A stretch of DNA of 33,565 nucleotides from a virus: positions 1 to 33,565 of IMG/VR virus record IMGVR_UViG_3300003635_000015. One strand, written 5' to 3'. How positions within the stretch are numbered: position 1 is the stretch's first letter; each line of letters begins with the position of its first letter. Under the pieces are notes generated by a model. The model had not been told where the DNA came from. It did not search any database and saw only the letters and a program-made list of their open reading frames with translations. Of this stretch, positions 11,533 to 33,565 are shown piece after piece. The position numbers and the translations under genes were made by a program.

Positions 11533-11567
11533 AATAAACCCCTCGGGTTGTTGTTGTGGATAACTTT

Positions 11568-11597
11568 ACATTATCCGCAAATTTACACGAGGCGCAA
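11568..11597 (-). promoter_or_regulatory. Candidate sigma70-type promoter for the micro-ORF cluster
   Basis: On the minus strand I read TTGCGC (11597-11592), an 18-nt spacer and TAATGT (11573-11568), in the 72-bp gap after the VRR-NUC gene. The inverted repeat GGATAA/TTATCC (11558-11563 and 11571-11576) overlaps the -10 element. Confidence 0.3.
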
Positions 11598-11604
11598 CAC
11601 TTTT

Positions 11605-11943
11605 TTACCTTGCGAGGTAATTATTTACCTGGTCGATCGCGTCGTCGCACCCTTTGCATACCAGGACGGTATGGCCCAGGCCCTCGAGGTACTCGATCCA
11701 GCCCTTTTGATGGTCCGATAATTTCCCGCCCTTTTGCCGTTTCATTTCGACCCACAGCGACCAGGCGGGGACGTACAGGTCCGGGACGCCTGGCAGCACG
11801 CCCTCGAGCTTTAACTGCATGGCGGTTGCTTTTGACCTGGCGCCACCATTAGGGATCGCAAATATGCGAACCCCTCGGTATTGCTGGCGGAACCAAACGA
11901 CGAAATTACGTTGCTCGATATGCTCGGTTGGTATTGTGCTCAA
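11605..11943 (-). CDS. VRR-NUC domain nuclease
   Basis: The PD-(D/E)xK-type pattern is EHIEQRNFVVW...IPNGG...GVPDLYV...LWVEMKRQKGGKLSDHQKGWIEYL. The apparent start is TTG, overlapping the upstream stop (TTGA). Confidence 0.75.
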   Translation of the reverse strand: MSTIPTEHIEQRNFVVWFRQQYRGVRIFAIPNGGARSKATAMQLKLEGVLPGVPDLYVPAWSLWVEMKRQKGGKLSDHQKGWIEYLEGLGHTVLVCKGCDDAIDQVNNYLAR

Positions 11944-12152
11944 AACGGTACCTCGTCGCTAAAATCCGGGCATTCGGCAGAGCCATACGATACGAAATCG
12001 TCGGGCGGCCGAACCCCGGCCAGGTTACAAATTCCGTCGTGCGAATAATGCTCGCAGGTATGGCAGCACTTAGGCACGGCGTTAGTTAGTAGGCGGATTT
12101 CCCGCCAAACCCGTAAAAACTCGGGTTCCGGTGGTCGTTTGTTATCAGTCAT
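11940..12152 (-). CDS. Small Cys-rich hypothetical protein
   Basis: The sequence contains CCHTCEHYSHDGIC...ECPDF. The gene overlaps both neighbours (8 nt upstream, 4 nt downstream) and has core-genome codon style. Confidence 0.6.
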   Translation of the reverse strand: MTDNKRPPEPEFLRVWREIRLLTNAVPKCCHTCEHYSHDGICNLAGVRPPDDFVSYGSAECPDFSDEVPF

Positions 12153-13737
12153 TAAACACCCTTTCTTTTATATCGAAAAACTTTCCGTTTTTCGCGTACT
12201 TGATTAAACCAGGCGGTGGCAATCGCCCCATAAGGTGCGCGATATCCGAAAGGCACGAACACGTTTGGATTTCACGCTTTGCCGCCAGGTCGTCGTTTGT
12301 CAGTTCGAACAGCGTACGGCGTGCACGCTGCCCGGCGTACCCGTCGTGCATTACGGTAACGTATTCCTTTACCGGTGGATCGGATAAGGCGCCGTAATAC
12401 GTAACGACCAGCATTTCGATACCGGTTTTTCGGCTTTCCTGGGTCGTCCATTTCCAGGACGTAACCTCGAGGTCGTCCAGGCCGCCCCCCATAATATCGA
12501 CGTCGTGCAGTTCGTAACGTTTCTCGGGCGCTGGAAATTCGTACCCGCACGCCTCGCACGCCCTGGCTGATAGGTGGACGATTTCGTCGCAGTTGGGGCA
12601 GAGCTTTACCGGCGCCTCGCCGGTGCCCTTGCTGCCCTGGCGCGGCGGTCGTACGGCCGTAATCGGTCCGTGCGTTTGTACGCACCCGGCGAAATCTAAT
12701 ACTAGGCAATGGTCAGCCTTAGACTTTAGTCGCATTCCTCGGCCTACCATTTGAACGTATAGCGTCGGCGATAGCGTCGGGCGCAGCATAGCGATAAGGT
12801 CGATATCCGGGTAATCGAACCCCGTCGTAAGCACGTTCGCGTTTGTCAGGGCGCGAATACGCCCGGCCTTATACTCGGCCAGGATACGGTCGCGTTCGGC
12901 CGTGGGGGTGTCGCCAGTCACGCAGGCGGCGGTTATTCCGTACTCGGTCAGCAAGTCGGCGATCGATTCGGCGTGCTTTACCCCGGTGCAGAAAAACAGC
13001 CAGGCGCGACGGTTGCCCGCCAGCTTGATAACCTCGCGGACGACCTGGTCGTTTTGCATCGGCGTATTAACGGCAGCCTGCAATTCCTTTTCGATGTATT
13101 CGCCCCCGCGTTTGTGTACGCCGTCGGTTTCGAGTTTTAGGTCGGTAACCTTTGACCGGACCGGCGCCAGGTAACCCCGGTGGACCAGTTCCTCGACCGT
13201 TACCGGTTCGATCAGGTCGTCGAATAGGGCGTCGCCGTCGGTAATGTAACCATGCCCCAGGCGGTACGGCGTGGCCGTTAACCCGATAACGCGCAGCGCC
13301 GGGTTTATCGCCTCGAGGTCGCCGATCAGTTTACGGTAACCGCCCTCGTCGCGGTGGTTGATTAGGTGGCATTCGTCGACGATAACCAGGTCGACGTGGC
13401 CCAGCTTTTCGGCCTTGTTGCGTACCGACTGGATACCGGCAAACGTGATCGGTTCGCCCAGGTCACGCTTTCGCAGCCCGGCCGAGTAAATACCCAGGGG
13501 CGCGCCTGGCCAATGCTGGCGCATTTTCTCGGCGTTTTGTTCGATCAGTTCCCGGACGTGCGTTAACATAAGGACCCGCGTTTCGGGCCAGCTTTGCAGC
13601 GCGTCCTTACATAGCGCGGCGACGACGTGCGATTTACCGGCACCGGTGGGCAGCACCAGGCACGGGTGGCCCTGGTCGTTACCCCGGAACCATTCGTAAA
13701 GGTGGTCGATTGCCCGTTGTTGATAATCCCGCAGCAT
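12145..13737 (-). CDS. Superfamily 2 DEAD/DEAH-box helicase with an internal zinc ribbon
   Basis: It has the Q-motif-like LRDYQQRAI, Walker A LPTGAGKS, DECH, the helicase C motifs TNANVLTTGFDYP and QMVGRGMR, and CPNCDEIV...CEACGYEF. Confidence 0.85.
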   Translation of the reverse strand: MLRDYQQRAIDHLYEWFRGNDQGHPCLVLPTGAGKSHVVAALCKDALQSWPETRVLMLTHVRELIEQNAEKMRQHWPGAPLGIYSAGLRKRDLGEPITFAGIQSVRNKAEKLGHVDLVIVDECHLINHRDEGGYRKLIGDLEAINPALRVIGLTATPYRLGHGYITDGDALFDDLIEPVTVEELVHRGYLAPVRSKVTDLKLETDGVHKRGGEYIEKELQAAVNTPMQNDQVVREVIKLAGNRRAWLFFCTGVKHAESIADLLTEYGITAACVTGDTPTAERDRILAEYKAGRIRALTNANVLTTGFDYPDIDLIAMLRPTLSPTLYVQMVGRGMRLKSKADHCLVLDFAGCVQTHGPITAVRPPRQGSKGTGEAPVKLCPNCDEIVHLSARACEACGYEFPAPEKRYELHDVDIMGGGLDDLEVTSWKWTTQESRKTGIEMLVVTYYGALSDPPVKEYVTVMHDGYAGQRARRTLFELTNDDLAAKREIQTCSCLSDIAHLMGRLPPPGLIKYAKNGKFFDIKERVFND

Positions 13738-13743
13738 ACGCCA

Positions 13744-14769
13744 CTACCTCACAATTTTTGCGCCTGGAAAATGCTTTTTAACCTCGTGCACAAATTCGTC
13801 GTCGAGCGAGCATATTTTCGGGTTGGCGATAATTTCGGTCGAGCAGTAACCGCCCTCGCCGTTTATTACCGGCTTGCCCTCGATGATATACACGGGTTCC
13901 CATTCGGTGCTGGCGTCCTGGTCCATTTCCCAGGGCACCAGGTCCGGGTGCAGCGCGTGGTTATCGCAGCCCGTACGCTGGAATTCGACCGGGATACCGT
14001 CGGCCTGGTGGCGTTCACAGCGCCAGGTCGAGTCGCTGCACGGCGTCGAATGCGCGCAGGTGCGACAATTTACCGCAGGCAGCGCGCCCTTATGGCAAAA
14101 TTCGTGGTAATTGCACATTCGGCACTGGTACCAGGTCGGGTCGTTCGATATCGGCGGCGGTGGTGCAGGTTCGGCGACGATCCGGTGCCCTCGATCGACG
14201 TATGCCTGGGCGCGTTCCTTGTCGAGTTTGACCCGCTCGAAATAATACCGGTCGTCGTCCTTACATACGGCGACGTACAAAGCCCGGTCGATTTCCGACC
14301 CCAGCATATAAACCTGGCACTGGGCGAAATGTTGCGGCTTGGATTTCTCGAGGCCGTTTTTTTCCAGGTCGTCGAACGACTTTTTACCGTGGGTTTTGAA
14401 TTCCAGGACGTGGCGCGATTTCGGGGCCTCGGGTACGCCGGAATTCGCGATCCCGTCCATACTACCCGATACGTGATTACCAAAGTCGACCCGGTCCTGG
14501 GCGCCCCCGGTGGTTTTGACGTCGACGCCGATTGCCCGCAGGTCGGAAATAATAATCCGTTCCTCGTTTTGCCCTCGGCGGAAAAGGCGCAGGATACGCC
14601 CAGGGAACCGCTCAGGGCGCGCCCAGCGAAAAGATAACCAAAGGTACCGGTCGCAATGATGGCCGAGCAGGGACGCGCCCAGGTGCGGCCGTGGGTCGTC
14701 CTGGTGGGCCTCGTGGTGCTGGTCGATCAGCGTCGCGGTGCTTACGGTTGGTTCGGGAATAATTGCCAT
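13744..14769 (-). CDS. PD-(D/E)xK exonuclease, Cas4/RecB-like, with Cys clusters
   Basis: The nuclease motifs are D(GIANSG)...EFK...QCQVY. The Cas4-type Cys pattern is an N-terminal HHCDRY plus CRMCNYHEFC (C-x2-C-x5-C). An extra C-terminal Cys/His cluster reads CRTCAHSTPCSDSTWRCERH...GCDNH. Confidence 0.7.
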   Translation of the reverse strand: MAIIPEPTVSTATLIDQHHEAHQDDPRPHLGASLLGHHCDRYLWLSFRWARPERFPGRILRLFRRGQNEERIIISDLRAIGVDVKTTGGAQDRVDFGNHVSGSMDGIANSGVPEAPKSRHVLEFKTHGKKSFDDLEKNGLEKSKPQHFAQCQVYMLGSEIDRALYVAVCKDDDRYYFERVKLDKERAQAYVDRGHRIVAEPAPPPPISNDPTWYQCRMCNYHEFCHKGALPAVNCRTCAHSTPCSDSTWRCERHQADGIPVEFQRTGCDNHALHPDLVPWEMDQDASTEWEPVYIIEGKPVINGEGGYCSTEIIANPKICSLDDEFVHEVKKHFPGAKIVR

Positions 14770-14780
14770 TTCGTTACCTC

Positions 14781-14807
14781 AAATAAAAAGGGGCGCCGTA
14801 GCGCCCC
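14781..14807 (-). terminator. Rho-independent terminator inside the leftward operon
   Basis: The minus strand reads GGGGCGC-TACG-GCGCCCC followed by TTTTTATTT (stems at 14790-14796 and 14801-14807). It lies between the DUF669-like gene and the nuclease gene. The nuclease RBS (GAGGT) starts a few nt after the T-run. Confidence 0.7.
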
Positions 14808-14813
14808 AGGGTT

Positions 14814-15296
14814 TTACTTTTGCCAGGGCGCCTTGCTACCGCTCGAGGCCGGTTGCGACCCGCCGGACTGTGCCGACGGTTGCGGCGCAGCGGACCCGGC
14901 GATCGCCTTGTACCCTTTAACGTCGTTCGAATCGCCGTATTCCTCGGACTTGCGGATCGCGAGCTTAATTTCCAGTTCGCCACCGATTAGCTGGTCGGTG
15001 TCGCGGACCTTGGCGAGGCCGATTGCCCCCATAAGTTCGGCGAGTTGCTGGCGCCCGATTTCCTCGGCTTTCGGGTTCGGGTTTTTAATGTTCAGGTTGC
15101 CCCAAACGACCCGGCCCTCGTGCGTCGGCCCGGTAATGTCGTACCGTACGGCGATATACTGGCCGTTACCGGCTTTGGTATCGCGCAGGTCGGCGTCGTT
15201 AATTTTTGCGCGGTACCAGCCCGCCGGTAATGGGTCGTATTGCCCGCCGGTGGTTTCTACGGTTGACGCGTCGAATTCCTCGTTAAGAAATGCCAT
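14814..15296 (-). CDS. DUF669-like ssDNA-binding protein
   Basis: The sequence contains LPAGWYRAKI...GNGQYIAVRYDITGP...GRVVWGNLNI, followed by a low-complexity Ser/Gly/Pro/Ala tail. Its position next to a Sak4-like ATPase is the usual arrangement for this family. Confidence 0.65.
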   Translation of the reverse strand: MAFLNEEFDASTVETTGGQYDPLPAGWYRAKINDADLRDTKAGNGQYIAVRYDITGPTHEGRVVWGNLNIKNPNPKAEEIGRQQLAELMGAIGLAKVRDTDQLIGGELEIKLAIRKSEEYGDSNDVKGYKAIAGSAAPQPSAQSGGSQPASSGSKAPWQK

Positions 15297-15301
15297 TTTT
15301 G

Positions 15302-15694
15302 TTACCTCGCTTTGGTTTCGGTTGTGATATTAAAACTCGGGCGGCCCTCGCTGGTGGTGATCGCGTCGAGTAAGGGGTCCGTAATGGACGGGTCGGCAGC
15401 TTTCCAGGCGGCCAGGTTTAGGTCGGGTTTCCAGCGAAACAGCGTTCCCAGGTGATCGGTAAGGCCGTGCTCGGCCGCCAAATCCTGCAATAGGTCGCCG
15501 TCGATCCGACGGTTAAGTCGCGTCGTAACCTTGATCGTTACGCCGTCGAGCTTGGTTGTGGCCGATCCGTCCGGCTTGGAATTTACCAGGCCGATAAGTC
15601 GGTCCTCGATTTCGCGCCGGGCCTCGGTTGCCTGGCGTTCGGTTTCCTTTAGGGCCAGCCAGTCGCCGACCATTGCGTTAAGTTCGTCGTTCAT
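15302..15694 (-). CDS. Hypothetical protein of the recombination module
   Basis: An ATGA overlap joins it to the upstream ATPase gene. It has core codon style and I recognised no motif. Confidence 0.6.
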   Translation of the reverse strand: MNDELNAMVGDWLALKETERQATEARREIEDRLIGLVNSKPDGSATTKLDGVTIKVTTRLNRRIDGDLLQDLAAEHGLTDHLGTLFRWKPDLNLAAWKAADPSITDPLLDAITTSEGRPSFNITTETKAR

Positions 15695-16371
15695 TTTGCA
15701 CCCCCTGCAATTTTATTGATGATTTCGCCCAGGTCGGGAGCCTCCCAGGTGTCGAGCTTGCCCGAGCGATCCTTTGCCAGCCAAAGGCCGTCGGAATCGC
15801 ACATAAGCGCGCGCTGGGTAACGCCGTCGGCGTCCTTTTCAACACGCAAGGCCAGGACCTCGTCGAAAAAGTACGGCAATTGCTGCCCGGTTTTATTGCC
15901 CGGCATACTGGGCGAATACAGCACGCGCCCCATTTCATCCTGGGTTTTCTCGAGCTTGGCCGACATATACACATTACGGCCCGGCAAATCACGAAACGCC
16001 CGGATAATATCGGCCATTTGTTCCTGCATGGCGCCGTAAGCCTGGCGTGGGTCCTTGGCGACCTTTTTTTCGTGGTTAAGGCAAACCTCGGCGATTTCCG
16101 ATATCGAATCCAGGGCGACCGATTTATACGGTTTCGCCTCGTCCGATTCGGTTAACCAGGTATAAGCCTCTTTTAACGTCGCCATATTCGTAACCTCGAT
16201 ATAAGGCACGTCGGCGTCGTGCAGGGACAAAAGCCCGCCCTCGGCAGATAGGACGATCGGGTCCGGCAAAGTCGCCACCAGGGACGTTTTACCGGCGCCA
16301 GCCTGGCCGTACACCAGGACCTTTACACCATTGGCAGCAAACCCGCCGGTGCGTTTCAGTTGAATAGCCAT
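15691..16371 (-). CDS. RecA-fold AAA ATPase, Sak4-like (AAA_24 type)
   Basis: I chose the ATG at 16371 (RBS AAGGA) rather than the track start at 16428. Walker A is VLVYGQAGAGKTS and the Walker B-like segment is SVALDSISE. Confidence 0.75.
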   Translation of the reverse strand: MAIQLKRTGGFAANGVKVLVYGQAGAGKTSLVATLPDPIVLSAEGGLLSLHDADVPYIEVTNMATLKEAYTWLTESDEAKPYKSVALDSISEIAEVCLNHEKKVAKDPRQAYGAMQEQMADIIRAFRDLPGRNVYMSAKLEKTQDEMGRVLYSPSMPGNKTGQQLPYFFDEVLALRVEKDADGVTQRALMCDSDGLWLAKDRSGKLDTWEAPDLGEIINKIAGGAK

Positions 16372-16495
16372 AAAGTTTCCTTTTGCGTTTACACCCGGTC
16401 GGCCAATTCCGTTCGGGATGGTTGACACGATACACCCGGCGCGGTTAACCTGTCAACAGTTCAATGTCGAAAAACTAACACGAGGTAAAAAACCA
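16372..16495. promoter_or_regulatory. Divergent early control region
   Basis: It is a 124-bp gap between divergent genes. GTTGACA (16421-16427) and TGTCAAC (16451-16457) form an inverted repeat that gives a TTGACA on each strand. On the minus strand TTGACA-N18-TATCGT can be read, and on the plus strand TTGACA-N17-TTAACC (weak). TACACCCGG is directly repeated at 16390-16398 and 16431-16439. Confidence 0.45.
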
Positions 16496-16705
16496 ATGGC
16501 AATCGCAGCACTCGAGGAAATCCGGGAACGCTTGCACGACCGCAAGCTAACCGTCGTCGCGCAGCATACCGGCCTGCACTACAACACCATTTATCGAATC
16601 GCCAACGGCACGAGTAAGGACCCGGCTTATAGCGTCGTAAAACGCTTGTCGGAATACTTGGACCAGGAAGGGGGCGACCGTGGCAGACATAACGCAAATA
16701 TTTAA
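16496..16705 (+). CDS. Small HTH DNA-binding protein (Cro/XRE-like)
   Basis: I chose the internal ATG at 16496 (RBS GAGGT about 10 nt upstream). The helix-turn-helix-like segment is LTVVAQHTGLHYNTIYRIANG. It is the first gene of the rightward operon. Confidence 0.6.
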   Translation: MAIAALEEIRERLHDRKLTVVAQHTGLHYNTIYRIANGTSKDPAYSVVKRLSEYLDQEGGDRGRHNANI

Positions 16706-18704
16706 CGGCGGGTTTACAAAGCCCGTCGAGGTGGCCCCAGCGCCACCCGAGGACCAGGTCCGATCGCAAATGATCGAATTCGGCCTCGAGGCACCCGACC
16801 AAATAATAATCGACGGCAATATTCACCGGTTCCGGGCCGGGACCAAAGGACGCGGCGGGAACGGCGATAAAACCGGGTGGTATATCATTTTTCCCGATGG
16901 CGTACCCGCCGGGCGGTTTGGTTGCTGGCGCGCCGGGATCGAGGCCACGTTTAAGGCCGACGTCGGGCGCAAGCTAACCCAGGCCGAGGAAATGGCGCAC
17001 GCGCGCCGTATGAACGAAGCAAAGCAGCGCCGGGACGAGGAACGGGCACGAAAGCAGGAAATCGTCGCGGACACGGTCGGCACGATATGGTCGGACTGCA
17101 CGGCGGCCCAGGATTCGCACCCGTACCTGGCGAAAAAAGGCGTTAAGGCGCACGGCACCAGGGTAACCGGCGACGGTCGCCTAGTGGTACCATTGTTTGA
17201 CGACCGGGGCGAAATTACGTCGCTGCAATATATCGACGCCAACGGCGGCAAGCTATACCACAGCGGCGGCAAAACCGGCGGGGCATACTGGCAGGTCGGC
17301 ACCCTGGACGACGACGGCGTAATTTATATCGCCGAGGGATTCGCCACAGCGGCGACGATTTACCAGGAAACCGGGCGGCCTTGCGTGATCGCTTTTAGCG
17401 CCTCGAACCTGGTACCGGTTGCTGGGTCGCTGCGCGATCGATACGGCGCCCAGCAGTCGATCGTTATTATCGCAGATAACGACCAAAGCGGCACCGGGCA
17501 AAAGTACGCGGACCAGGCCAGCGCAAAACATGGCGCCCGCGTCGCAATTCCGCCAATATCGGGCGATGCGAACGATTACGTACAGGCCGGGCACGACCTG
17601 GTCGAGCTTTTGACCCCTAAAACGTCGGACTGGTTGATCCAGGCGGACGAATTCAGCGCCAAACCGGCGCCGTTATCCTGGGCACTTAAACGCTGGTTAC
17701 CCTCGAACGGCTTGGTAATGATGCACGGCCCCAGCGGCGGCGGTAAAACGTTCGTCGTACTCGACTGGTGCCTGGCGATCGCTGGCGGCCTCGAGGAACG
17801 CATGGGGCACAAAGTTAACCAGGGAACCGTCGTTTACCTGGCGGGCGAGGGCCACCACGGACTGCGCGGTCGTATCGCCGTATGGAAACAGGAAAACAAA
17901 GTCGGCAGCCTGGATATGTACCTTTCGCGCGACGGGTGCGACCTAAACACGGCCGAGGGATACCAGCGCGTCGTCGATAACATACGAGGCACCGGGAAAA
18001 CCCCGTCGCTAATCGTCGTCGATACCTTGCACCGATTCCTGCAAGGCGACGAGAACAGCGCCCAGGATACAAAAACAATGCTCGACGCGTGCGGCGGCCT
18101 TATAACCGAGTTCGGTTGCGCGGTTATCCTGGTACACCATACCGGCGTAAATTCCGAGGCGCAGCACCGGGCCAGGGGTTCGAGCGCCTGGCGTGGCGCC
18201 CTGGATATCGAAATATCGATCGTACCGGCGTCGGAACACGGCGACCCGATGGAAATAATACAGCGCAAAAGCAAGGACGCCGAAATCGCCGAAACGATGT
18301 ATTGCCGCCTGGATAGCGTAGCAATCCGGGGGTGGTACGACGAGGATAACGAACCCGTTACCTCAGCCGTCGTTCGCCAGGTTGACGCCACCGAGAAACG
18401 CGAAAAGGCCAAAGCCCCGTCGCAGCTTGATAAGCACCGAAAACTAATCGAGCGCGCGTTTTGGCACGGTGGCGCCGAGGTCCGCGAGGATTCGCCATAT
18501 ATTAGCCGGTCGGCGTTTAAGGATATGCTCGAAAACGACGGGATCGCAGCGAGCAGCGTTAAAAATTACGTAAAGGCCAGTTACCAAAATGGCCCGGTCG
18601 CGAATTTACTTAATTCGGAAATTATCGCCACGTACGAGCACGGTTGGATCGTTACCGACCTGGTTATGGCGTCGGCGCTATTGATGGCGAAAGGGGGCAA
18701 GTAA
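16680..18704 (+). CDS. Toprim primase fused to a RecA-type (AAA_25 / DnaB-like) helicase
   Basis: The start is GTG with RBS GAAGGGGG. The Toprim motifs are IYIAEGFATAAT and IIADNDQSGTGQ. The helicase Walker A is MHGPSGGGKTF and Walker B is LIVVDTLHRF. About 100 aa at the C-terminus have no assigned motif. Confidence 0.8.
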   Translation: MADITQIFNGGFTKPVEVAPAPPEDQVRSQMIEFGLEAPDQIIIDGNIHRFRAGTKGRGGNGDKTGWYIIFPDGVPAGRFGCWRAGIEATFKADVGRKLTQAEEMAHARRMNEAKQRRDEERARKQEIVADTVGTIWSDCTAAQDSHPYLAKKGVKAHGTRVTGDGRLVVPLFDDRGEITSLQYIDANGGKLYHSGGKTGGAYWQVGTLDDDGVIYIAEGFATAATIYQETGRPCVIAFSASNLVPVAGSLRDRYGAQQSIVIIADNDQSGTGQKYADQASAKHGARVAIPPISGDANDYVQAGHDLVELLTPKTSDWLIQADEFSAKPAPLSWALKRWLPSNGLVMMHGPSGGGKTFVVLDWCLAIAGGLEERMGHKVNQGTVVYLAGEGHHGLRGRIAVWKQENKVGSLDMYLSRDGCDLNTAEGYQRVVDNIRGTGKTPSLIVVDTLHRFLQGDENSAQDTKTMLDACGGLITEFGCAVILVHHTGVNSEAQHRARGSSAWRGALDIEISIVPASEHGDPMEIIQRKSKDAEIAETMYCRLDSVAIRGWYDEDNEPVTSAVVRQVDATEKREKAKAPSQLDKHRKLIERAFWHGGAEVREDSPYISRSAFKDMLENDGIAASSVKNYVKASYQNGPVANLLNSEIIATYEHGWIVTDLVMASALLMAKGGK

Positions 18705-18934
18705 TGGCAAAAACCCAATATTGCGACGAATGCAAATACAAACGCGACCTAATACCGCTATCTCGGTCTGATCTGTTATGCGAAAAAGGGCACCGACCAC
18801 GGTTTTACAAGCCAAAGAATTTACACCAGGTCGTTTTCGGCAGTTCCTGGGGATATAAACGCCGGTGCGACGATTTCGTCCTGGGCGACCATGTACACGT
18901 TATCGACGTGGGGGTGCTAAATGCCAAAGGCTAA
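18704..18934 (+). CDS. Small hypothetical protein with Cys/His residues (76 aa)
   Basis: I chose the ATG at 18704, which overlaps the primase stop (TAATG), with an AAGGGGG RBS. The product begins MAKTQYCDECKYK...CEKGH. Confidence 0.55.
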   Translation: MAKTQYCDECKYKRDLIPLSRSDLLCEKGHRPRFYKPKNLHQVVFGSSWGYKRRCDDFVLGDHVHVIDVGVLNAKG

Positions 18935-19418
18935 AAAGCGAAACAAGCAATACGACCCATTAAAGGCAGCGGGCCGGGTTTCCGATTATTTACTGCGCGG
19001 GCACGCCGTCGTTTACCTAGCAAGCCTGGACCGCGTCGCCCTAATGGACTGCAAAAAGCGCCAGCAGGTAATACCCTCGAGCGCCACCGCCAGGGCAATA
19101 ACCGATATCCCGCACCGGTGGGCGATTACCTGCGCGGTGCTATGCCGGGACCAGCTAGGCAAGGAATACCTGGTAACGCAGCAGGTCGCGTGCAAGGATC
19201 GTTATTACCATGCCGACCTTATCGATATGCTAAACGAGCAGCACCAGGCGCTAATTAAATCGTGCAATTCCTTGCACGCAATAAATTACGGCTGGATGGC
19301 CACCGTAAACGACGAGGAAATCGACCTTAAAACCCAGGAATCGATTTACCGTATGCTCGAGGGATTCGAAACACTTACAAAAAGGGAAGCCATAGCGGAG
19401 GGAATAATCGACCAATGA
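18921..19418 (+). CDS. Hypothetical protein (165 aa)
   Basis: The ORF overlaps both neighbours and has core codon style. I recognised no motif. Confidence 0.6.
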   Translation: MPKAKKRNKQYDPLKAAGRVSDYLLRGHAVVYLASLDRVALMDCKKRQQVIPSSATARAITDIPHRWAITCAVLCRDQLGKEYLVTQQVACKDRYYHADLIDMLNEQHQALIKSCNSLHAINYGWMATVNDEEIDLKTQESIYRMLEGFETLTKREAIAEGIIDQ

Positions 19419-19618
19419 AAACAAAACAACGTTTTATCGACCATATCGAAATACGCAATAACGACGCCGTAATCGTCCTGGACGACGGTTCGACCCTGGG
19501 CGGTTTAATTACCGTCGGCGCGTCCGCCAGCGTACAGCAAATTTCGGTCGCCTATATTACGGCGTATATTATGAACAAGGATACGATCCTACCCGACCAG
19601 GACGATACCAAACATTAA
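19415..19618 (+). CDS. Hypothetical protein (67 aa)
   Basis: It starts with an ATGA overlap on the upstream gene. It contains the motif DAVIVLDDGSTL, which resembles GARVILADGSVF in the next ORF. Confidence 0.5.
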   Translation: MKTKQRFIDHIEIRNNDAVIVLDDGSTLGGLITVGASASVQQISVAYITAYIMNKDTILPDQDDTKH

Positions 19619-19630
19619 GCGAGGCACAAA

Positions 19631-19813
19631 ATGGCAGAACGTAAACAAATCGTACGAGTAACCAGGACCCCAGGCGGGGCGCGCGTTATCCTGGCGGACG
19701 GATCGGTATTCGATGCCGCCACCAAACAAAACGACCCCCAGGACCTCGAGAACCTTATCGAAAACCTGGATGCGACCCGCATTAAATTAAAACCGGGGGC
19801 AATGCTTAAATGA
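19631..19813 (+). CDS. Hypothetical protein (60 aa)
   Basis: The RBS is GAGG, upstream of the ATG at 19631. The gene is coupled to the next small ORF by an ATGA overlap. Confidence 0.5.
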   Translation: MAERKQIVRVTRTPGGARVILADGSVFDAATKQNDPQDLENLIENLDATRIKLKPGAMLK

Positions 19814-19899
19814 TAGGGATTGTTTCCGCCCTGGGTTTCGTCGCAGTAATTGCGATCGCAGCCTGGGCAATGCTTAATGACGACGAGGACCTGGGATAA
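19810..19899 (+). CDS. Hypothetical 29-aa membrane peptide, not in the ORF track
   Basis: The hand translation is MIGIVSALGFVAVIAIAAWAMLNDDEDLG. The start overlaps the upstream stop (ATGA) and the stop overlaps the next start (TAATG). Confidence 0.45.
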   Translation: MIGIVSALGFVAVIAIAAWAMLNDDEDLG

Positions 19900-20081
19900 T
19901 GAATACACGCGAGAAAATACTTACCGGCCTGGCCCTGGCGTTTATCCTGGGCGCCTTTGGCGTCGTCGGCGAGGCCGACTACCAGGAAGCCATACGCCAG
20001 GAACAGGAATACCAGCGCATGGTATGCAGCGGCGCATGGCCCAATTACAAACAAATCGACGTAAATTGCGAGGATAAATAA
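19899..20081 (+). CDS. Small membrane or secreted hypothetical protein (60 aa)
   Basis: It has an N-terminal hydrophobic helix (ILTGLALAFILGAFGVVG) followed by a charged tail with two Cys residues. Confidence 0.5.
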   Translation: MNTREKILTGLALAFILGAFGVVGEADYQEAIRQEQEYQRMVCSGAWPNYKQIDVNCEDK

Positions 20082-20082
20082 A

Positions 20083-20394
20083 ATGCCAATACCACCCATT
20101 ACAGAAACAATCGAAAAGGTTATCGACTGGCACGACGCCCGAAACCTTATCCTGGGTTCGACCGATAAAGACCAATACCTTAAACTGGTGTCGGAGGTCG
20201 GCGAGCTTGGCGATAATATCGCCAAAGGTAACGACGTCGAGGACGATATCGGCGATATCCTGGTCGTGCTAATCAATATCGCGCACCGGAATAATACCTC
20301 GCTCGAGGATTGCCTGGCCGTCGCGTACGACGACATAAAGGACCGAAAGGGCCGCATGGTCGACGGCGTATTCGTTAAGGACCTGGGCCAATGA
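20083..20394 (+). CDS. MazG-like nucleotide pyrophosphohydrolase
   Basis: The all-alpha NTP-PPase metal-binding pattern is SEVGELGDNIAKGNDVEDDIGDILVVLINIA (ExxE ... ExxD). Confidence 0.7.
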   Translation: MPIPPITETIEKVIDWHDARNLILGSTDKDQYLKLVSEVGELGDNIAKGNDVEDDIGDILVVLINIAHRNNTSLEDCLAVAYDDIKDRKGRMVDGVFVKDLGQ

Positions 20395-20545
20395 TAGGGG
20401 TACAAGAGGGTACAAATTGTACCTTTTTGTACTTGTACCAAAATCGACCAATTTTTGTGCAAAATGGGTACAAAAAGGTACAACACCCCTTTAGGGGTTG
20501 TACCCTTGTACCCTTGTACAAGTAGCGCAAACTTGTACTCGAGAG
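20395..20545. repeat. GTAC-core iteron cluster (GGTACAA / TTGTACC)
   Basis: GGTACAA starts at 20399, 20409, 20467 and 20477. TTGTACC starts at 20417, 20433, 20498 and 20506. The variants TTGTACT or TTGTACA start at 20427, 20514 and 20533. That is eleven GTAC cores in about 140 bp of non-coding DNA. Confidence 0.85.
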
Positions 20546-20558
20546 GATTACGGATAAA

Positions 20559-20837
20559 ATGAACCTGGCAGTTGATATTTTAGCGGACGCAGCGGGCCAC
20601 CTCGGCGACCGTGCGAAAACATACGACGCACCCGGCGGCGAACGATCGATGCAGAAAACCGTCGACGCGTTCCGGTGCATTACCGGCGTGGATATGACCA
20701 CCGAGCAAGGTTGGTTATTTATGGCGGTGCTTAAAGCAGTACGAACGCAGCAAGGCGCGTTTAAAATTGACAATTACGAGGACGGCGCGGCGTACTTCGC
20801 CCTGGCAGGCGAACAGGCAAAAGCGGACCGAGGTTAA
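20559..20837 (+). CDS. Conserved phage protein, DUF6378-like
   Basis: The pattern DRAKTYDAPGGERS...DMTTEQGWLFMAVLKAVRTQ...KIDNYEDGAAYFAL matches my memory of that family. It lies directly upstream of terS. Confidence 0.5.
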   Translation: MNLAVDILADAAGHLGDRAKTYDAPGGERSMQKTVDAFRCITGVDMTTEQGWLFMAVLKAVRTQQGAFKIDNYEDGAAYFALAGEQAKADRG

Positions 20838-20840
20838 CCG

Positions 20841-21323
20841 ATGGCGGAAAAGAAAGCGGCACCGAAACGGCGAGGACGACCACCAGGGAAAAAACCCCCT
20901 GCGCTAACGCACGCCCAAACGATGGACGCGATTATCGAATGGCTTTCCGAGGGTAAAACCCTGCGCGAATATTGCAGGCAGCCAGGAAAACCAGCATTCC
21001 GTACCGTTTATGACTGGTGTGATGCCGACGAAAATTTCGCTGCACGCTTCGCGCGCGCGCGAGAAATCGGCCAGGACATGATCGCCGAGGAAACGATCGA
21101 AATTATCGATACCGAACCCGAGTACGCCGAATCCTGGTCCGAGGGCGGCGGATCGAAACGTCGCGACGCGGCGTTTGTGCAATGGCAAAAGAACCGGGCC
21201 GAGCAGCGCCTTAAACTATTGGCGAAATGGAATCCAAAACGATACGGCGACAAAGTCGGCGAGGGGCCGACCGATAATCGACCAATCAATATTGAGATAA
21301 TTAAACCCGATGGCGCAGATTAA
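20841..21323 (+). CDS. terS: Terminase small subunit
   Basis: The N-terminus is basic, followed by an HTH-like segment (IIEWLSEGKTLREYCRQPGKPAFRTVYDWC). The tail FARAREIG...KLLAKWNPKRYGDK is typical of small terminases. The gene overlaps the terL start. Confidence 0.75.
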   Translation: MAEKKAAPKRRGRPPGKKPPALTHAQTMDAIIEWLSEGKTLREYCRQPGKPAFRTVYDWCDADENFAARFARAREIGQDMIAEETIEIIDTEPEYAESWSEGGGSKRRDAAFVQWQKNRAEQRLKLLAKWNPKRYGDKVGEGPTDNRPINIEIIKPDGAD

Positions 21324-22557
21324 ACCGACCTTACCGCAATACCAGTATATGACCAGCGAGGCCAGGTTCCCGGCGTTCGTCGCTGGGTTCGGGTCCGGTA
21401 AAACCGAGGCGTCGGTCCTGCGCGCAATTTACGGCATGATTAAAAACCCAGGCACGAACCGGGGATATTACGAACCGACGTACGACCTTATTCGTATGAT
21501 CGCCTGGCCCAGGTTCGAGGAAATACTTACCCGCCTAGAAATCCCGTACAAGCTATACAAAACCCCGTTAAATCAAATTACGCTCGAGGGCCTGGGAACG
21601 GTATTCTTTCGATCGATGGATAACCCGCAGCGTATTATCGGTTACGAGCACGCCGACGCGGATATCGACGAATTGGATACGCTCAAACGCGACGATGCCG
21701 AACACGCATGGCGCCAGATAATGGCCAGGAACAGGCAGCACAAACCGAACGGCGCACCGAATACCATTGGCGTAACGACCACCCCCGAGGGATTCCGGTT
21801 TGTATATGAGGCCTGGAAAAAGGAACCTCGAGCCGGGTACGAAATAATTAAGGCCTCGACCTTTAGTAACCCGCACTTGCCCGACGGCTATATCGAGGCA
21901 ATCCAGGACCTTTACCCCGACCACTTATTGGCGGCCTACCTTAACGGCGATTTTGTAAACCTAACCTCGGGCACCGTATACGCGTCGTACGATCGCGCCA
22001 GGTGCAACAGCGACGAAACGATCCAGGAACGCGAGGACCTGTTTATCGGGTGCGACTTTAACGTTACGCAGCAGGCGGCCACGGTTTACGTTAAACGCCC
22101 TGGCGTCGAGGGGCCGTCTTGGCACGCGGTCGACGAGCTTACCCGAATGTACGATACGCCAGAAATGATCGAGGTTATTAAATCCAGGTACCCAGGGCAC
22201 AAGGTTTACATTTACCCGGATGCCAGCGGCGGGGCCAGGAAAACGGTTAACGCGTCGGTATCGGATATCGCCTTATTGCAACAGGCAGGGTTTTACGTCC
22301 GCGTAAAATCCAAAAACCCGGCGGTTAAGGACCGGGTCCTCGCAATGAATAGCGCCCTCGATCGTAACCTGGTAAAGGTTAACGCGAAACGATGCCCGAA
22401 CGTGGCCGAATGCCTGGAACAGCAGGTATACAAAAACGGCGAGCCGGACAAATCGAGCGGGAACGACCACCAAAACGACGCCACGACGTACCCGATAGCG
22501 TACGAAATGCCGATCGTTAAACCGGTGGCCTCGGTCGAGTTCGCTTTTGCGATTTAA
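21310..22557 (+). CDS. terL: Terminase large subunit
   Basis: Walker A is AGFGSGKTEA and Walker B is ADIDELD. The nuclease-domain acidic motifs are IGCDFNV and IYPDASGG. Size and position fit. Confidence 0.85.
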   Translation: MAQIKPTLPQYQYMTSEARFPAFVAGFGSGKTEASVLRAIYGMIKNPGTNRGYYEPTYDLIRMIAWPRFEEILTRLEIPYKLYKTPLNQITLEGLGTVFFRSMDNPQRIIGYEHADADIDELDTLKRDDAEHAWRQIMARNRQHKPNGAPNTIGVTTTPEGFRFVYEAWKKEPRAGYEIIKASTFSNPHLPDGYIEAIQDLYPDHLLAAYLNGDFVNLTSGTVYASYDRARCNSDETIQEREDLFIGCDFNVTQQAATVYVKRPGVEGPSWHAVDELTRMYDTPEMIEVIKSRYPGHKVYIYPDASGGARKTVNASVSDIALLQQAGFYVRVKSKNPAVKDRVLAMNSALDRNLVKVNAKRCPNVAECLEQQVYKNGEPDKSSGNDHQNDATTYPIAYEMPIVKPVASVEFAFAI

Positions 22558-22597
22558 TTTACGGTGCTAATATGGCCCAAACGATAGGATTAACATT

Positions 22598-23992
22598 ATG
22601 CCGGTAAGTACAAAACACCCACAATACGAGCTTTATTCCGGCGTATGGGAAAAGACCCGCGACGCCGTTCGCGGTTCGGTCGCAGTTAAGGAAAAGCGAG
22701 CGAAATATTTACCCGTACCCGATGCCGAGTCGAACGCCCAGGGCGTCGATTCCGTGCGATATAAGCAATATTTGAAACGCGCAGTATTCACCAATTACAC
22801 CGGGCGAACGAAAAACGCCCTGGTCGGTGCTGCATTCCGAAAGGCGCCTATCCTGGAAATGCCCGACGGCCTGGAATACCTGGTCGACGATGCCACCGGC
22901 GACGGCTTGAGCCTGGAACAAATGGCAAAGGACGAGCTTTCGAACCTGCTAGAAACCGGGCGATCGTTATTCCTGGTCGATTACCCCCAGGCCGACGACG
23001 GCCTATCGGCCGAGGACGTCGCACGCCTGGACCTGCGCGCCTCGATCGTTCCGTACCCTGCCGAATCCGTGATTAACTGGAAAACCGAGGTTATCGCCGG
23101 GCGGCGATTGCTTACCCTGGTGGTACTGGCCGAACCCTACCTCGAGGCCAGCGACGAATTTACGCACGAATCGAAAACGCAATACCGCGTTTTGCGCCTG
23201 GGCGACGAGGGTTACAGCCAGCAAATTTACCGCGACGACGAGCCATACGGCGAGGAATTTTTCCCGCGTCGTTCGGATGGTTCGACCTGGGACTTTATCC
23301 CGGTAACGTTCGTCGGCAGCAAAAACAACGATCCGACGGTCGACGACGCGCCCCTGGCGGATATCGCCGACGTAAATATCGCGCATTATCGAAATTCGGC
23401 CGATTACGAGGAAAGTTGTTTTATTACCGGGCAGCCGACCCTATTTATTACGACCTCGCTTGATGGCGAACAATGGAAAGCCCTTAACCCGGAAGGTATC
23501 AAAATCGGGTCGCGTGCTGGCCACGTCCTGGGCGAAACCGGGTCCGCGTCGCTATTGCAGCCAAACGCTAACCAGTTGGTGCTCGAGGCAATGAAAGCAA
23601 AAGAGCAGCAAATGGTCGCAATCGGCGCCAGGATTATTACCGACCGAGGCGGAAACGAAACAGCCGAGGGCGCACGTATCCGGTTCGCGTCGGAAAACTC
23701 GGTCCTGGGCGATATCGTCGGGAACCTATCCGAGGCGATACAGGATTGCATTTACTGGTGCGGCGAGTTTATGGGCGCAAACGTCGAGGACGTATCGTTC
23801 GAAATTAACCGCGAGTTTTACGACAAGTCGGTCGACCCGCAGCTAATTATGAGCCTGGTTACCTTGCTCGATCGCCAAATCGTAAGCGACCAGGATATTT
23901 TCGACCGGTTAAAAGCGGGCGGTATAATCGACGGGTCGCGAACCCTCGAGGACGTGCGCGAGGAAATCGGCGAGCTTTCGCCCCTGGCGTAA
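22598..23992 (+). CDS. Portal protein (DUF4055-like)
   Basis: It is a 464-aa ORF immediately after terL. The N-terminal pattern YELYSGVWEKTRDAVRGSVAVKEKRAKYLP resembles DUF4055-type portals. Confidence 0.7.
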   Translation: MPVSTKHPQYELYSGVWEKTRDAVRGSVAVKEKRAKYLPVPDAESNAQGVDSVRYKQYLKRAVFTNYTGRTKNALVGAAFRKAPILEMPDGLEYLVDDATGDGLSLEQMAKDELSNLLETGRSLFLVDYPQADDGLSAEDVARLDLRASIVPYPAESVINWKTEVIAGRRLLTLVVLAEPYLEASDEFTHESKTQYRVLRLGDEGYSQQIYRDDEPYGEEFFPRRSDGSTWDFIPVTFVGSKNNDPTVDDAPLADIADVNIAHYRNSADYEESCFITGQPTLFITTSLDGEQWKALNPEGIKIGSRAGHVLGETGSASLLQPNANQLVLEAMKAKEQQMVAIGARIITDRGGNETAEGARIRFASENSVLGDIVGNLSEAIQDCIYWCGEFMGANVEDVSFEINREFYDKSVDPQLIMSLVTLLDRQIVSDQDIFDRLKAGGIIDGSRTLEDVREEIGELSPLA

Positions 23993-24003
23993 CGAGGTGC
24001 AGC

Positions 24004-24286: not shown

Positions 24287-24427
24287 ATGCCAGTTACCAA
24301 AGTAAAAGGCGGCTATCGATGGGGTTCGAAAGGTAAGGTTTACCCGACCAAAGCCCAGGCAGAAAAGCAGGGCCAGGCAGCGCACGCAGCCGGGTACAAG
24401 AAAAAGGCCAAAAAGGGCAGTAAATGA
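24287..24427 (+). CDS. Small basic protein (46 aa)
   Basis: I chose the internal ATG at 24287 of track ORF 24179-24427 (RBS AAGGGGG). The product is MPVTKVKGGYRWGSKGKVYPTKAQAEKQGQAAHAAGYKKKAKKGSK. The upstream part of the track ORF lies inside the previous gene. Confidence 0.5.
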   Translation: MPVTKVKGGYRWGSKGKVYPTKAQAEKQGQAAHAAGYKKKAKKGSK

Positions 24428-31852: not shown

Positions 31853-33565
31853 GACAGTTAACCCTTAAAGTCGATACAGGCGACGTCGCACGCGCGACAA
31901 AGCAAATCGACGATATGGGCAATTCCGCAAGGGATACCGCCCAGAAAATCGACAAGGTCGGCCCCTCGACCAAAACAGCAGGCGCCGGAACCCGTGGGCT
32001 GGGCAACGAGGCCCAGAAAGCAGGCAAGCGAATAAACGATTTCGGCGACGAAATCCAGGATGCCAACGCCAAACTTAAAACGATGCCGACCCAAACAAAG
32101 GCGGCAAACGACGCAATGGGTAATTTCGGTCGCAAGGCCGGGATGGCAGGTATTCAGTTCGAGCAGTTGGCGGGCCAGATTGCAATGGGCCAGAACCCAA
32201 TGCAGGCGATCGGCGTACAGGCGGCCGACCTTGGGTTTATCCTGGGCGTGCCTTTGCTGGGCGCCGTCGTCGGTATCGGGTCGGCTATTGCGTCGGTCCT
32301 ATTGCCGAACCTGCTAAAAAGCGAGGACGCATCCGAAACCCTATCGAATGCAATGGAGCGACTTTCGGAGGTTATCGAAAGGACCGAAACCGGGTCGTTC
32401 CAGCTTACCCAGCGATTCGTTACCCTGGCGGAAAAATCCCGCGAGCTTGCGGCGATCGACCTTGCGATCGGTATCGCCCAGGCGACGATCGCATACGAAA
32501 CCGCGACCGAGCAGATACGCGGGCAGCTTGAGGGTATTGTCGGCATGATCGGGCCGACCACCGCAGCGTTTGAGGAAATAAACGACGCGATCCGGGAAAC
32601 CGGCGAGGTGCCCCGCGAGTTGCAGGGGTTCTATAACTGGACCAGAGAAATCGGCGAGGAATTCGGCATTTCACGCGACCAGGCCCTCGACCTGGTACTG
32701 GCGTTTAAGCGATTCCAGGACGGCGTTATCCCATTGGCGGATTTACGTACCGAGGTGCTGCGCCTGGCCGAAAATGGCGATATGTCGCGCGACAGTACGC
32801 GCCAGCTTGTATCGGCGTTCCTGGATAACGTCGTCGCAGCGGGTAACGCGGAACAAGCCCTCGAGGCATTAAACGCGGTCCTAAATAATACCGATACAGC
32901 CCTGCAAACAGCAACGCAGCACGCGGACGGGTTCGCCCAAAGCGTGGCGGGCATGGTTTCGGTGCTCGAGCGACGCGACGCAGCCCTTAAAAATTCCGAG
33001 GAAACCCTGGCGGTGCAGGCAGCGGTCGCACGAGGCGCCAGCGAGGCGGAGGTACAGCGTATCCGCGACCTTTACGCGTCGATCGATGCAGAGGAAGCGC
33101 GCCAGGAAGCGGCCAGGGAGTCCGCCAGGGAGCAAGAGCGGGCCGCCAGGGAAGCGGAACGCACAGCCGAACGCGAAGCCAGGGCAGCCGAAACAAAGGC
33201 CGAGAGGGAAGCCCAGGCGGCCCAAGATTCGATTACCCGCCGAAACCAGGAAGCGCAAAGCGTCGCCGAATCCTTGTTGCGTGAGGAGGAAGCGATCGCG
33301 CTATCGTACGAACGTCGGCGCGAGGCGATCCTAGCCTCGACCCAGCTTACCGAGGAACAGAAAAACGAGCTTATCCGGCGTTTAACCGAGGAATCGAACG
33401 CGGAATTGCTCGAGCTTAACGCGAGTTACTGGGACCAATGGCTTACCAAACAGCAAGAAAGCATGACCACGTTCGACGACGTGGCAGCGGGCGCCCTTAA
33501 TACGTTCAAAACGGCGGCCGGGTCGGCGTTCGAAAGTATTATTTTCGACAGCGAAAGCGCCGAGG
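31837..33565 (+). CDS. Tape measure protein, 5' part (open at the window end, continues at 1-782; about 803 aa in total)
   Basis: The ATG is at 31837 with RBS GAGGA, and I saw no stop through 33565. The ORF track omits it because it is open-ended. It contains GMAGIQFEQLAGQIAMGQNPMQAIGVQAADLGFILGVPLLGAVVGIG and a long Ala/Arg/Glu coiled-coil region (about 33080-33240). Confidence 0.85.
   Translation, partial: MATEVGQLTLKVDTGDVARATKQIDDMGNSARDTAQKIDKVGPSTKTAGAGTRGLGNEAQKAGKRINDFGDEIQDANAKLKTMPTQTKAANDAMGNFGRKAGMAGIQFEQLAGQIAMGQNPMQAIGVQAADLGFILGVPLLGAVVGIGSAIASVLLPNLLKSEDASETLSNAMERLSEVIERTETGSFQLTQRFVTLAEKSRELAAIDLAIGIAQATIAYETATEQIRGQLEGIVGMIGPTTAAFEEINDAIRETGEVPRELQGFYNWTREIGEEFGISRDQALDLVLAFKRFQDGVIPLADLRTEVLRLAENGDMSRDSTRQLVSAFLDNVVAAGNAEQALEALNAVLNNTDTALQTATQHADGFAQSVAGMVSVLERRDAALKNSEETLAVQAAVARGASEAEVQRIRDLYASIDAEEARQEAARESAREQERAAREAERTAEREARAAETKAEREAQAAQDSITRRNQEAQSVAESLLREEEAIALSYERRREAILASTQLTEEQKNELIRRLTEESNAELLELNASYWDQWLTKQQESMTTFDDVAAGALNTFKTAAGSAFESIIFDSESAE
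33467..33565. repeat. Right copy of the 99-bp exact end overlap
   Basis: Bases 33467-33565 are identical to 1-99 by direct comparison. Confidence 0.95.

Follow-up and report, generated by a model that had tools for sequence, protein, structure and literature searches.

What function does a dense cluster of short repeats serve between the early operon and the terminase genes of a phage? The cluster was found in IMG/VR virus record IMGVR_UViG_3300003635_000015, of which positions 1 to 33,565 were analysed (this whole stretch of 33,565 nucleotides is referred to below as the window), and it consists of direct and inverted copies of the 7-mer GGTACAA. An initial annotation took it for a multi-site platform for an oligomeric DNA-binding protein and offered three candidate roles: a pac/cos site for the small terminase subunit TerS, an origin of replication that the C-terminal region of the phage primase-helicase binds, or an activator site for late transcription. 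The array is located at the early/late junction, 1.7 kb from the stop codon of the primase-helicase gene and about 300 bp upstream of terS, which is what had suggested a packaging role; because this position fits all three ideas, it cannot decide among them by itself. Comparison with related phages supports the general reading as a binding platform and strongly favours the second role: very probably, the array is an iteron-type origin of phage replication that is read by the phage's own primase-helicase.

Two phased blocks of iterons

The stretch from 20399 to 20539 contains 11 GTAC cores, eight of them in exact copies of GGTACAA or its inverted form TTGTACC and three in variants. Direct copies start at 20399 and 20409 in block 1 and at 20467 and 20477 in block 2, exactly 10 bp apart within each pair; inverted copies start at 20417 and 20433 in block 1 and at 20498 and 20506 in block 2, and are accompanied by the variants TTGTACT (20427 in block 1, 20533 in block 2) and TTGTACA (20514 in block 2). 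A perfect dyad, GGTACAA-A-TTGTACC, is present at 20409-20423. These repeats, their phasing and the dyad are all as the initial annotation had placed them, and the spacer between the blocks (20440-20466), which had been described as AT-rich, indeed has an A+T content of 70%, compared with 45% for the genome. It includes GTGCAAAAT, which fits the family-wide spacer motif G(G)GCAAAA. The site in the same spacer that had been described as one mismatch from the IHF-type pattern did not hold up, as AATCGACCAATTT (20442-20454) differs from WATCAANNNNTTR at two positions and is conserved only in the closest relative, L083; we therefore rejected it.

Clustering of the repeats is far beyond chance. Eight of the 14 exact 7-mers of the window (3.4 expected from whole-window shuffles) and 12 of its 33 GTACAA/TTGTAC 6-mers fall inside the approximately 140 bp of the array. 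In 300 first-order Markov simulations, the maximum per 150 bp was two 7-mers, three 6-mers and seven GTAC, as opposed to eight, 12 and 11, respectively, in the array, so the comparison with shuffled controls that had been proposed as a check came out well in favour of a genuine cluster. The six exact 7-mers found elsewhere (6187, 6754, 24393, 24945 and 30181 on the plus strand, 14908 on the minus strand) replace the single outside copy, near 24393, that had been noticed by eye.

Linkage of the array to the primase-helicase gene

The last 205 residues of the primase-helicase, used as a query, returned 391 homologues from the protein collection (the last 111 aa returned two), and an alignment of 29 of them retrieved 80 viral-contig loci (viral-contig relatives number 584+ in all) and 25 loci in genomes or metagenome-assembled genomes (MAGs). 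Among the 75 distinct sequences of the family set (72 viral-contig loci, the window, L143 and L234), 49 have five or more copies of one hexamer within 275 nt downstream of the primase-helicase stop codon, and most of the other 26, including the window, have weaker or displaced arrays. All 20 analysable genome or MAG loci have 5-13 copies of one hexamer in that interval. An array of the same architecture is found within 275 nt of the stop codon of a homologous Toprim and RepA-like primase-helicase gene in about 95 further loci, cultured phages among them. The cultured phages CGphi29, PB15 and 1N2-2 carry their arrays in gaps that are unannotated in the GenBank records. In CGphi29 (L339), the GGGACA array occupies 5496-5737, and a separate unannotated gap of 800 bp (6609-7415) is found just upstream of terS.

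An exact scan for GGTACAANNNGGTACAA yielded mostly chance matches, together with about a dozen loci that encode homologues of the window's primase-helicase and replication module. A GGTAC array begins a few bases after the primase-helicase stop codon in L026, L035, L042, L048, L056, L062, L110, L111, L123, L135 and L197 (60% identity) and is also found at the stop codon in L101 (33% identity), L143, L234 and L257; the L143 primase-helicase is 49% identical to that of the window, C-terminal domain included, and the L234 C-terminal domain is 53% identical. In the loci found by the exact scan, the layout matches that of the window: two to four direct copies of GGTACA at 10-bp phase are followed by inverted copies, a spacer, two direct copies, a dyad and two inverted copies, with the second direct copy serving as the left arm of the dyad around a CACCCC-TTTA-GGGGTG centre. 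A metagenome scan with the hairpin core gave, among the matches listed, mostly chance hits, the only relatives being L143, L197 and L234.

The layout is constant across the family: direct copies come first and inverted ones next, and after the G(G)GCAAAA spacer there are two more direct copies, the hairpin and a last set of inverted copies. The direct-then-inverted block 1 is common to L083, L234, L257, L297, the L042-type loci and phage 1N2-2, every family member examined has a block 2 whose elements come in this order, and the spacer motif ggggcaaaa(c)agc recurs across lineages with different iterons. Comparison with related phages, which the initial annotation had called for, shows that the two-block layout recurs, with the 10-bp phase in the GGTAC-type loci, while the hexamer varies by lineage. 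A copy of the whole 122-bp array in L083 is 92% identical to that of the window but has unrelated flanks, its neighbours being an HTH (helix-turn-helix)-like gene and a minor-tail gene; it lies beyond the replication module, whose DNA is only 74% identical; the array is therefore more conserved than the nearby genes and can move. GGTAC(A) arrays of 6-9 copies also occur in viral contigs without a homologue of the window proteins (the L055/L076/L089 group, L102/L117, L017 and L105), by a PD-(D/E)XK exonuclease gene and terS, in a VRR-NUC/SNF2 helicase gap, by an integrase gene or between divergent modules. These contigs were left out of the evidence.

The repeated hexamer co-varies with the C-terminal domain

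Lineages have different hexamers (GGTACA, GGTAAC, GGGAAC, GGGTCA, GGGACA, GGTTCA, GGGTAG and others), in keeping with the subtype of the C-terminal domain of their primase-helicase. GGGTCA accompanies the subtype NM(V/I)NPSY.DKLIGAL, GGTAAC the subtype AKQY(I/L)KPS.PGKPI and GGGAAC the subtype AKVYIKPSANGKPI, while GGTACA is found both with AKLY.KPSQAGRP and with KNY.K.SY..G, the subtype of the window, L257 and phage 1N2-2. Phage PB15 and L355 have GGTTCA, phage CGphi29 and L328 have GGGACA, and L258 has GGGTAG. In 2,346 pairs of distinct proteins, identity of the C-terminal domain (approximately 95 residues) predicted a shared iteron core with an area under the curve (AUC) of 0.92, as opposed to 0.71 for the adjacent helicase segment. 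Arrays that are displaced from the gene keep the hexamer that fits their subtype, as seen in L261 (2.1 kb), L318 (1 kb), L264, L265 and L309 (0.3 kb) and the window (1.7 kb).

Helicase segments that are at least 85% identical go with differing iterons in 220 pairs. The L267 and L326 proteins, for example, are 98% identical in the helicase segment and 52% identical in the C-terminal domain, and their iterons are GGGGC and GTAAC, respectively. Such pairs, alike in the helicase and different in both domain and iterons, suggest that the C-terminal domain and the array are exchanged together as a cassette. In L323 and L333, which also have helicase segments of 98% identity, the C-terminal domains share 86% identity and the iterons are GGGAAC and GGTAAC. 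Comparison of these two pairs of sequences points to recombinational swapping of the C-terminal domain together with the origin and to a small number of specificity-determining residues. The residues that differ between specificity classes are found in the helix 624-630, the loop that follows it, the helix 639-645 and the wing.

A model of residues 575-674, built with 30 aligned sequences, had a predicted local distance difference test (pLDDT) score of 93.7 and a predicted template modelling (pTM) score of 0.82, and shows an H-b-H-H-H-b-b-H topology, that is, a helix-turn-helix with a beta-hairpin wing. The top matches in a Foldseek search of the Protein Data Bank (PDB) were all winged-helix DNA-binding proteins (CprK, PrfA, CAP, GntR, IclR, TubR and Rpa2-WH). 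The fold search with a 205-aa model likewise returned generic, non-significant winged-helix matches. Judging by the model, the C-terminal domain probably has a winged-helix-like DNA-binding fold and may act like the domains of P4 alpha and of the Rep proteins of Staphylococcus aureus pathogenicity islands (SaPIs), although the matches do not assign it to either family; homology to the P4 alpha-type origin-binding domain was not supported by the phmmer search or by the top 50 fold matches, which did not include PDB entry 1KA8. The helicase part of the protein is homologous to RSF1010 RepA (PDB 1G8Y, E = 4.5e-8), which was the only match of the primase-helicase in a phmmer search of PDB; no P4 alpha chain was found there.

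DnaA boxes in the family

Of the 75 distinct arrays, 36 contain perfect DnaA boxes (TTATCCACA), 82 boxes in all. The background in the rest of the same loci is 0.017 per 275 nt, so that approximately 1.3 would be expected and the enrichment is about 60-fold. The boxes often form tandem pairs that precede block 1 and appear again after block 2. Theta origins of plasmids and phages classically consist of iterons with DnaA boxes on their flanks. The GGTAC-type arrays, that of the window included, are without DnaA boxes, so this evidence holds for the family and not for the window's own copy.

A hairpin conserved for pairing

The bulged hairpin that the initial annotation had pointed out at 20477-20504 does fold: as single-stranded DNA, the segment 20462-20525 has a folding energy of -15.4 kcal/mol, with z = -3.0 relative to shuffles. 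Its outer arms are iterons, and its inner stem is CACCCC/GGGGT(G). A perfect stem is found at the same place in approximately 30 distinct relatives, always abutting the second direct iteron of block 2 whatever the iteron specificity, with a T(T/A)TA centre and unrelated inner sequences (CACCCC/GGGGTG, CACACC/GGTGTG, CTCTCC/GGAGAG, CCATC/GATGG, CTACC/GGTAG, AACCC/GGGTT and GGCCC/GGGCC). This co-variation is taken from the list of stems and the sequences themselves, as automatic centring of palindromes mis-set the dyad in several loci, including the window. The comparison indicates that the stem is conserved for pairing rather than for sequence.

Compensatory changes that preserve a stem in some 30 relatives, and folding better than that of shuffled sequence, would also be expected of an RNA terminator or processing site in the early transcript, to which the repeats would be incidental. 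However, no T-run follows the stem, the terminator scan was negative there, which led us to reject an intrinsic terminator, and a search of Rfam with the hairpin found no family, the best matches being chance-level miRNA (E = 0.5). The outer stem itself consists of iterons, and such a site would leave block 1, the 10-bp phasing and the DnaA boxes unexplained; we consider it extremely improbable.

As part of an origin, the hairpin could be extruded to become the loading or priming site for a self-loading primase-helicase of the RecA type (RepA/DnaB class). By analogy, a reasonable guess is that it acts as a cruciform or as a single-strand loading or priming signal similar to the single-strand initiation (ssi) sites in the oriV of IncQ plasmids, a possible role that is suggested by the initiation hairpins of RSF1010. 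A wider proposal, in which the origin is composite, with the hairpin as its structured single-strand initiation signal, and the C-terminal domain/origin cassettes, with their dozens of natural variant pairs, amount to a readable recognition code between winged helix and hexamer, is rather doubtful when both parts are taken jointly. If it were true, a single phage element would unite two principles in the composite origin, the iterons of P4 and SaPIs and the ssi sites of IncQ plasmids.

Packaging or transcription as less likely roles

A site of the pac or cosB kind would also account for phased repeats, as an Sf6-type TerS could oligomerise on them, TerL would cut nearby and headful packaging would start there. 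The array is about 300 bp upstream of terS-terL in the window and directly precedes terS in L042, L035 and L062, and P1 pac and lambda cosB come to mind at the sight of two blocks around a central spacer. In addition, the array is flanked by two near-identical contigs from other metagenomes, L259, which ends at the equivalent of window position 20352, and L001, which starts at that of 20879. The end of L259, 47 nt before the array, and the start of L001, approximately 340 nt after it, may reflect an effect of the repeats on assembly, strain variation or a physical end.

What follows the array in other family members argues against a packaging site. A gene for a ParB-methylase separates the array from terS in L048, L110 and L123, and in L056, L111 and L135 it is followed by a sigma-70 promoter, genes for Dps-like and GroES-like proteins and, 1.5 kb off, a different terS/terL pair. 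In L234, 4 kb of small open reading frames (ORFs) leads from the array to a DUF6378 homologue without an adjoining terS; in L083 the array precedes the tail gene, and in phage 1N2-2 it precedes MazG. The array remains the same when the TerS is 34% identical and the TerL belongs to another PHROG family (L042) and when the TerL is yet another one (the L135 group), whereas relatives of the window's TerS at 46-53% identity (L002-L015) have no GGTAC cluster. The sequence of the repeat instead tracks the C-terminal domain of the primase-helicase, and DnaA boxes flank half of the family's arrays. The pac/cos proposal is accordingly disfavoured, and we regard it as very unlikely. Among the relatives of this TerS, L006-L012 encode an unrelated primase-helicase of the VapE type, and eight GGTGACAT repeats and an AT-rich tract follow its gene (L006 2160-2400); in L005, ten GGGACA repeats (1071-1187) are found inside an ORF of 371 aa. 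The rule that iterons lie beside the initiator gene seems to be general.

The third proposal, a control region at which a regulator (the Cro-like HTH protein or a late activator) activates, represses or insulates the late operon, draws on the fact that, where the early operon gives way to the late genes, the array fills the one non-coding gap of any size. It is upstream of late genes in the same orientation both in the window and in L083, and a good sigma-70 promoter (TTGACA-N17-TATGAT) follows the array in L056, L111, L135 and L143. However, promoter and terminator scans of 20395-20558 found no promoter-like or terminator-like site, and the early divergent promoter region near 16430, the expected target of a Cro-like protein, has no copy of GGTAC. 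Eleven sites in two convergent blocks are atypical of an activator, and transcriptional control leaves the DnaA boxes and the co-variation with the C-terminal domain unexplained. Nothing specific speaks for the late activator site of the initial annotation, and control of transcription is an improbable main function; a transcriptional effect could be a secondary consequence of initiator binding. In L143 (3030-3250), the promoter after the array is of the TTGACA type, and the stretch ends in GGTTCGATTCC, which resembles a tRNA T-arm.

Salicola phage CGphi29 is the source of the TIGR-TasH system (PMC13421893, which also defines TIGR arrays), and this suggested a tandem interspaced guide RNA (TIGR) array as another candidate. 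It was rejected, as the 7-mers occur in both orientations and there are no variable spacers of constant length and no box C/D; no Nop domain was found among the 10 window proteins scanned.

How the proposed origin would work and what speaks against it

In the replication origin that we favour, the primase-helicase would be the initiator and would act in trans on the array 1.7 kb downstream, its C-terminal winged-helix-like domain recognising the GGTACA(A) iterons. Many subunits would bind cooperatively to the two convergent, helically phased blocks, which would bring helicase rings onto the DNA, and the A+T-rich spacer would melt and/or the conserved dyad would be extruded; the melting of the spacer is proposed by analogy with SaPI origins and those of phage-inducible chromosomal islands (PICIs) (PMC9371898, PMC6092414). 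The RepA/DnaB-like ATPase would then load itself, and the Toprim domain would make the primers that the host polymerase extends. The proposed origin comes directly after the stop codon of the initiator gene in most relatives, and in the window six small early genes intervene.

Several observations weigh against this proposal. The window's array is 1.7 kb from the initiator gene with packaging genes just downstream, a position that fits packaging or late transcription too; it has no DnaA box, its A+T-rich spacer is just 27 bp and lacks a long unwinding element, and the GC skew of the window follows the direction of transcription and is uninformative on the origin. The Foldseek search with the C-terminal domain gave no significant match in PDB (best E = 0.027, TM score approximately 0.42), and the origin-binding domain of P4 alpha (1KA8) was absent from the top 50. 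In the L042-type proteins (60% identical), the C-terminal domain is shorter and poorly alignable, yet the GGTAC iterons are kept. Physical linkage partly confounds the co-variation, as the region that encodes the C-terminal domain mostly abuts the array; linkage cannot, however, explain the displaced arrays that match their subtype. The only pair of DnaA boxes in the window, TGTGGATAA (perfect, 11555-11563) and TTATCCGCA (11571-11579) in inverted orientation, occupies the gap that follows the VRR-NUC gene, with the replication module between it and the array. It may be another site involved in replication or a promoter regulated by DnaA.

Gene context

The window represents a circular assembly of approximately 33,466 bp, in which positions 1-99 recur exactly at 33467-33565 and the ends are arbitrary. 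Megablast of positions 16000-24000 against the phage collection found no match at the DNA level, and a tRNA search found no tRNAs. The array and the genes around it are listed in Table 1. The DUF6378 gene, which follows the array in the window and is 4 kb from it in L234, has a weak match upstream of the primase-helicase gene in L258 (7760-8029); it is a mobile small gene of the early region.

Table 1. Elements of the array and neighbouring genes in the window
Feature	Position	Strand	Remark or basis
Replication/recombination module: VRR-NUC, DEAD helicase, PD-(D/E)XK exonuclease, DUF669 protein, AAA_24/Sak4-like ATPase	11605-16428	-	Translations and homologous loci
Cro-like HTH protein	16418-16705	+	Domain search
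Primase-helicase, 674 aa, Toprim_3 and AAA_25	16680-18704	+	Pfam, PHROGs, PDB 1G8Y
C-terminal domain of primase-helicase, residues 575-674	18402-18701	+	Model, Foldseek, co-variation
Six small early ORFs, the last MazG-like (20083-20394)	18704-20394	+	Between primase-helicase gene and array
Iteron array, non-coding gap	20395-20558 (164 bp)	.	Between MazG-like gene and DUF6378 gene
Iteron block 1	20399-20439	+	2 direct GGTACAA, then 3 inverted copies
Spacer between blocks, candidate melting region	20440-20466	.	27 bp, 70% A+T
Iteron block 2	20467-20539	+	2 direct GGTACAA, hairpin, then 4 inverted copies
Dyad/hairpin GGTACAACACCCC-TTTA-GGGGTTGTACC	20477-20504	+	Bulged; within block 2
DUF6378 gene	20559-20837	+	Domain search
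Sf6-type TerS	20841-21323	+	Domain search
Terminase_6 TerL, 53% identical to Kagunavirus/Tsm2-type	21310-22557	+	Domain and protein search
Portal	22598-23992	+	PHROGs

Implications for phage genome annotation

Replication origins are rarely annotated in phage genomes and almost never in metagenomic phages. The rule that emerges here, an iteron array just after the gene for a Toprim/RepA-like primase-helicase, with the repeat matched to the last ~95 residues of the protein, locates the probable origin in hundreds of uncultured phages as well as in four cultured ones in which the gap is unannotated (Salicola phage CGphi29, Idiomarinaceae phage 1N2-2, Alteromonas phage PB15 and XX1924). The family also offers a ready-made set of matching proteins and DNA sites, which differ from pair to pair by one or two bases and a few residues, for dissecting the specificity of winged-helix domains. 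For the window, the result sets right an inference that comes easily, namely that repeats directly ahead of terS are a packaging site.

Comparison with known origins

The proposed element belongs to a well-known kind, that of origins whose iterons are recognised by a winged-helix domain at the C terminus of a primase-helicase that loads itself. The Rep proteins of SaPIs bind, through such a domain, 6-12 penta- or hexanucleotide iterons that lie directly downstream of rep around an AT-rich centre (PMC9371898), and the origins of Gram-negative PICIs have two sets of iterons around an AT-rich region (PMC6092414). The likeness to SaPIs and PICIs such as EcCICFT073 extends to an initiator, here a proposed one, that is the replicative helicase, with the primase adjoining or, as in PriRep5, fused; to a C-terminal winged-helix domain, known here from the model, that goes with iterons of 5-6 nt; to the 6-12 iterons directly downstream of the initiator gene, in two sets around an A+T-rich centre and with copies in opposite directions; and to a specificity that varies between allelic variants (PMC9371898, PMC6092414). 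In contrast, SaPI Rep proteins belong to AAA+ clades of the superfamily 3 (SF3)/MCM-like type, whereas the helicase described here is AAA_25, of the RecA type and RSF1010 RepA/DnaB-like. The window furthermore represents a complete phage and not a satellite, its origin is 1.7 kb from the gene, and the family has a compensated hairpin throughout and DnaA boxes in half of its members.

P4 alpha binds short repeated octamers in both orientations. A primase of the DnaG/Toprim type, a helicase and, at the C terminus, a winged-helix domain that binds the origin are joined in this one polypeptide (PMC2777425), as they would be in the phage protein. However, the helicase of P4 is SF3, P4 alpha has no sequence match to the window's protein and is not found by fold among the top 50, and P4 has two separated loci, ori and crr, instead of a single two-block array. 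The oriV of RSF1010 (IncQ) contains iterons and hairpin-forming single-strand initiation sites, its iterons are 20-mers, and RepA, RepB' and RepC are separate proteins. The helicase domain of the phage protein is homologous to RepA, but the phage joins the three activities in one protein, its iterons span 6-7 nt, and RepC and RepB' showed no homology to that protein.

None of the papers found describes this variant, which is distinguished by its RecA-type, RepA-like helicase, the compensated family-wide hairpin, the exchangeable domain/origin cassettes and the optional DnaA boxes. It would extend the design of the self-loading initiator-helicase from SF3/MCM-type to RecA-type helicases, and we consider the origin to be of the P4 alpha/SaPI Pri-Rep type with a helicase of a different class.

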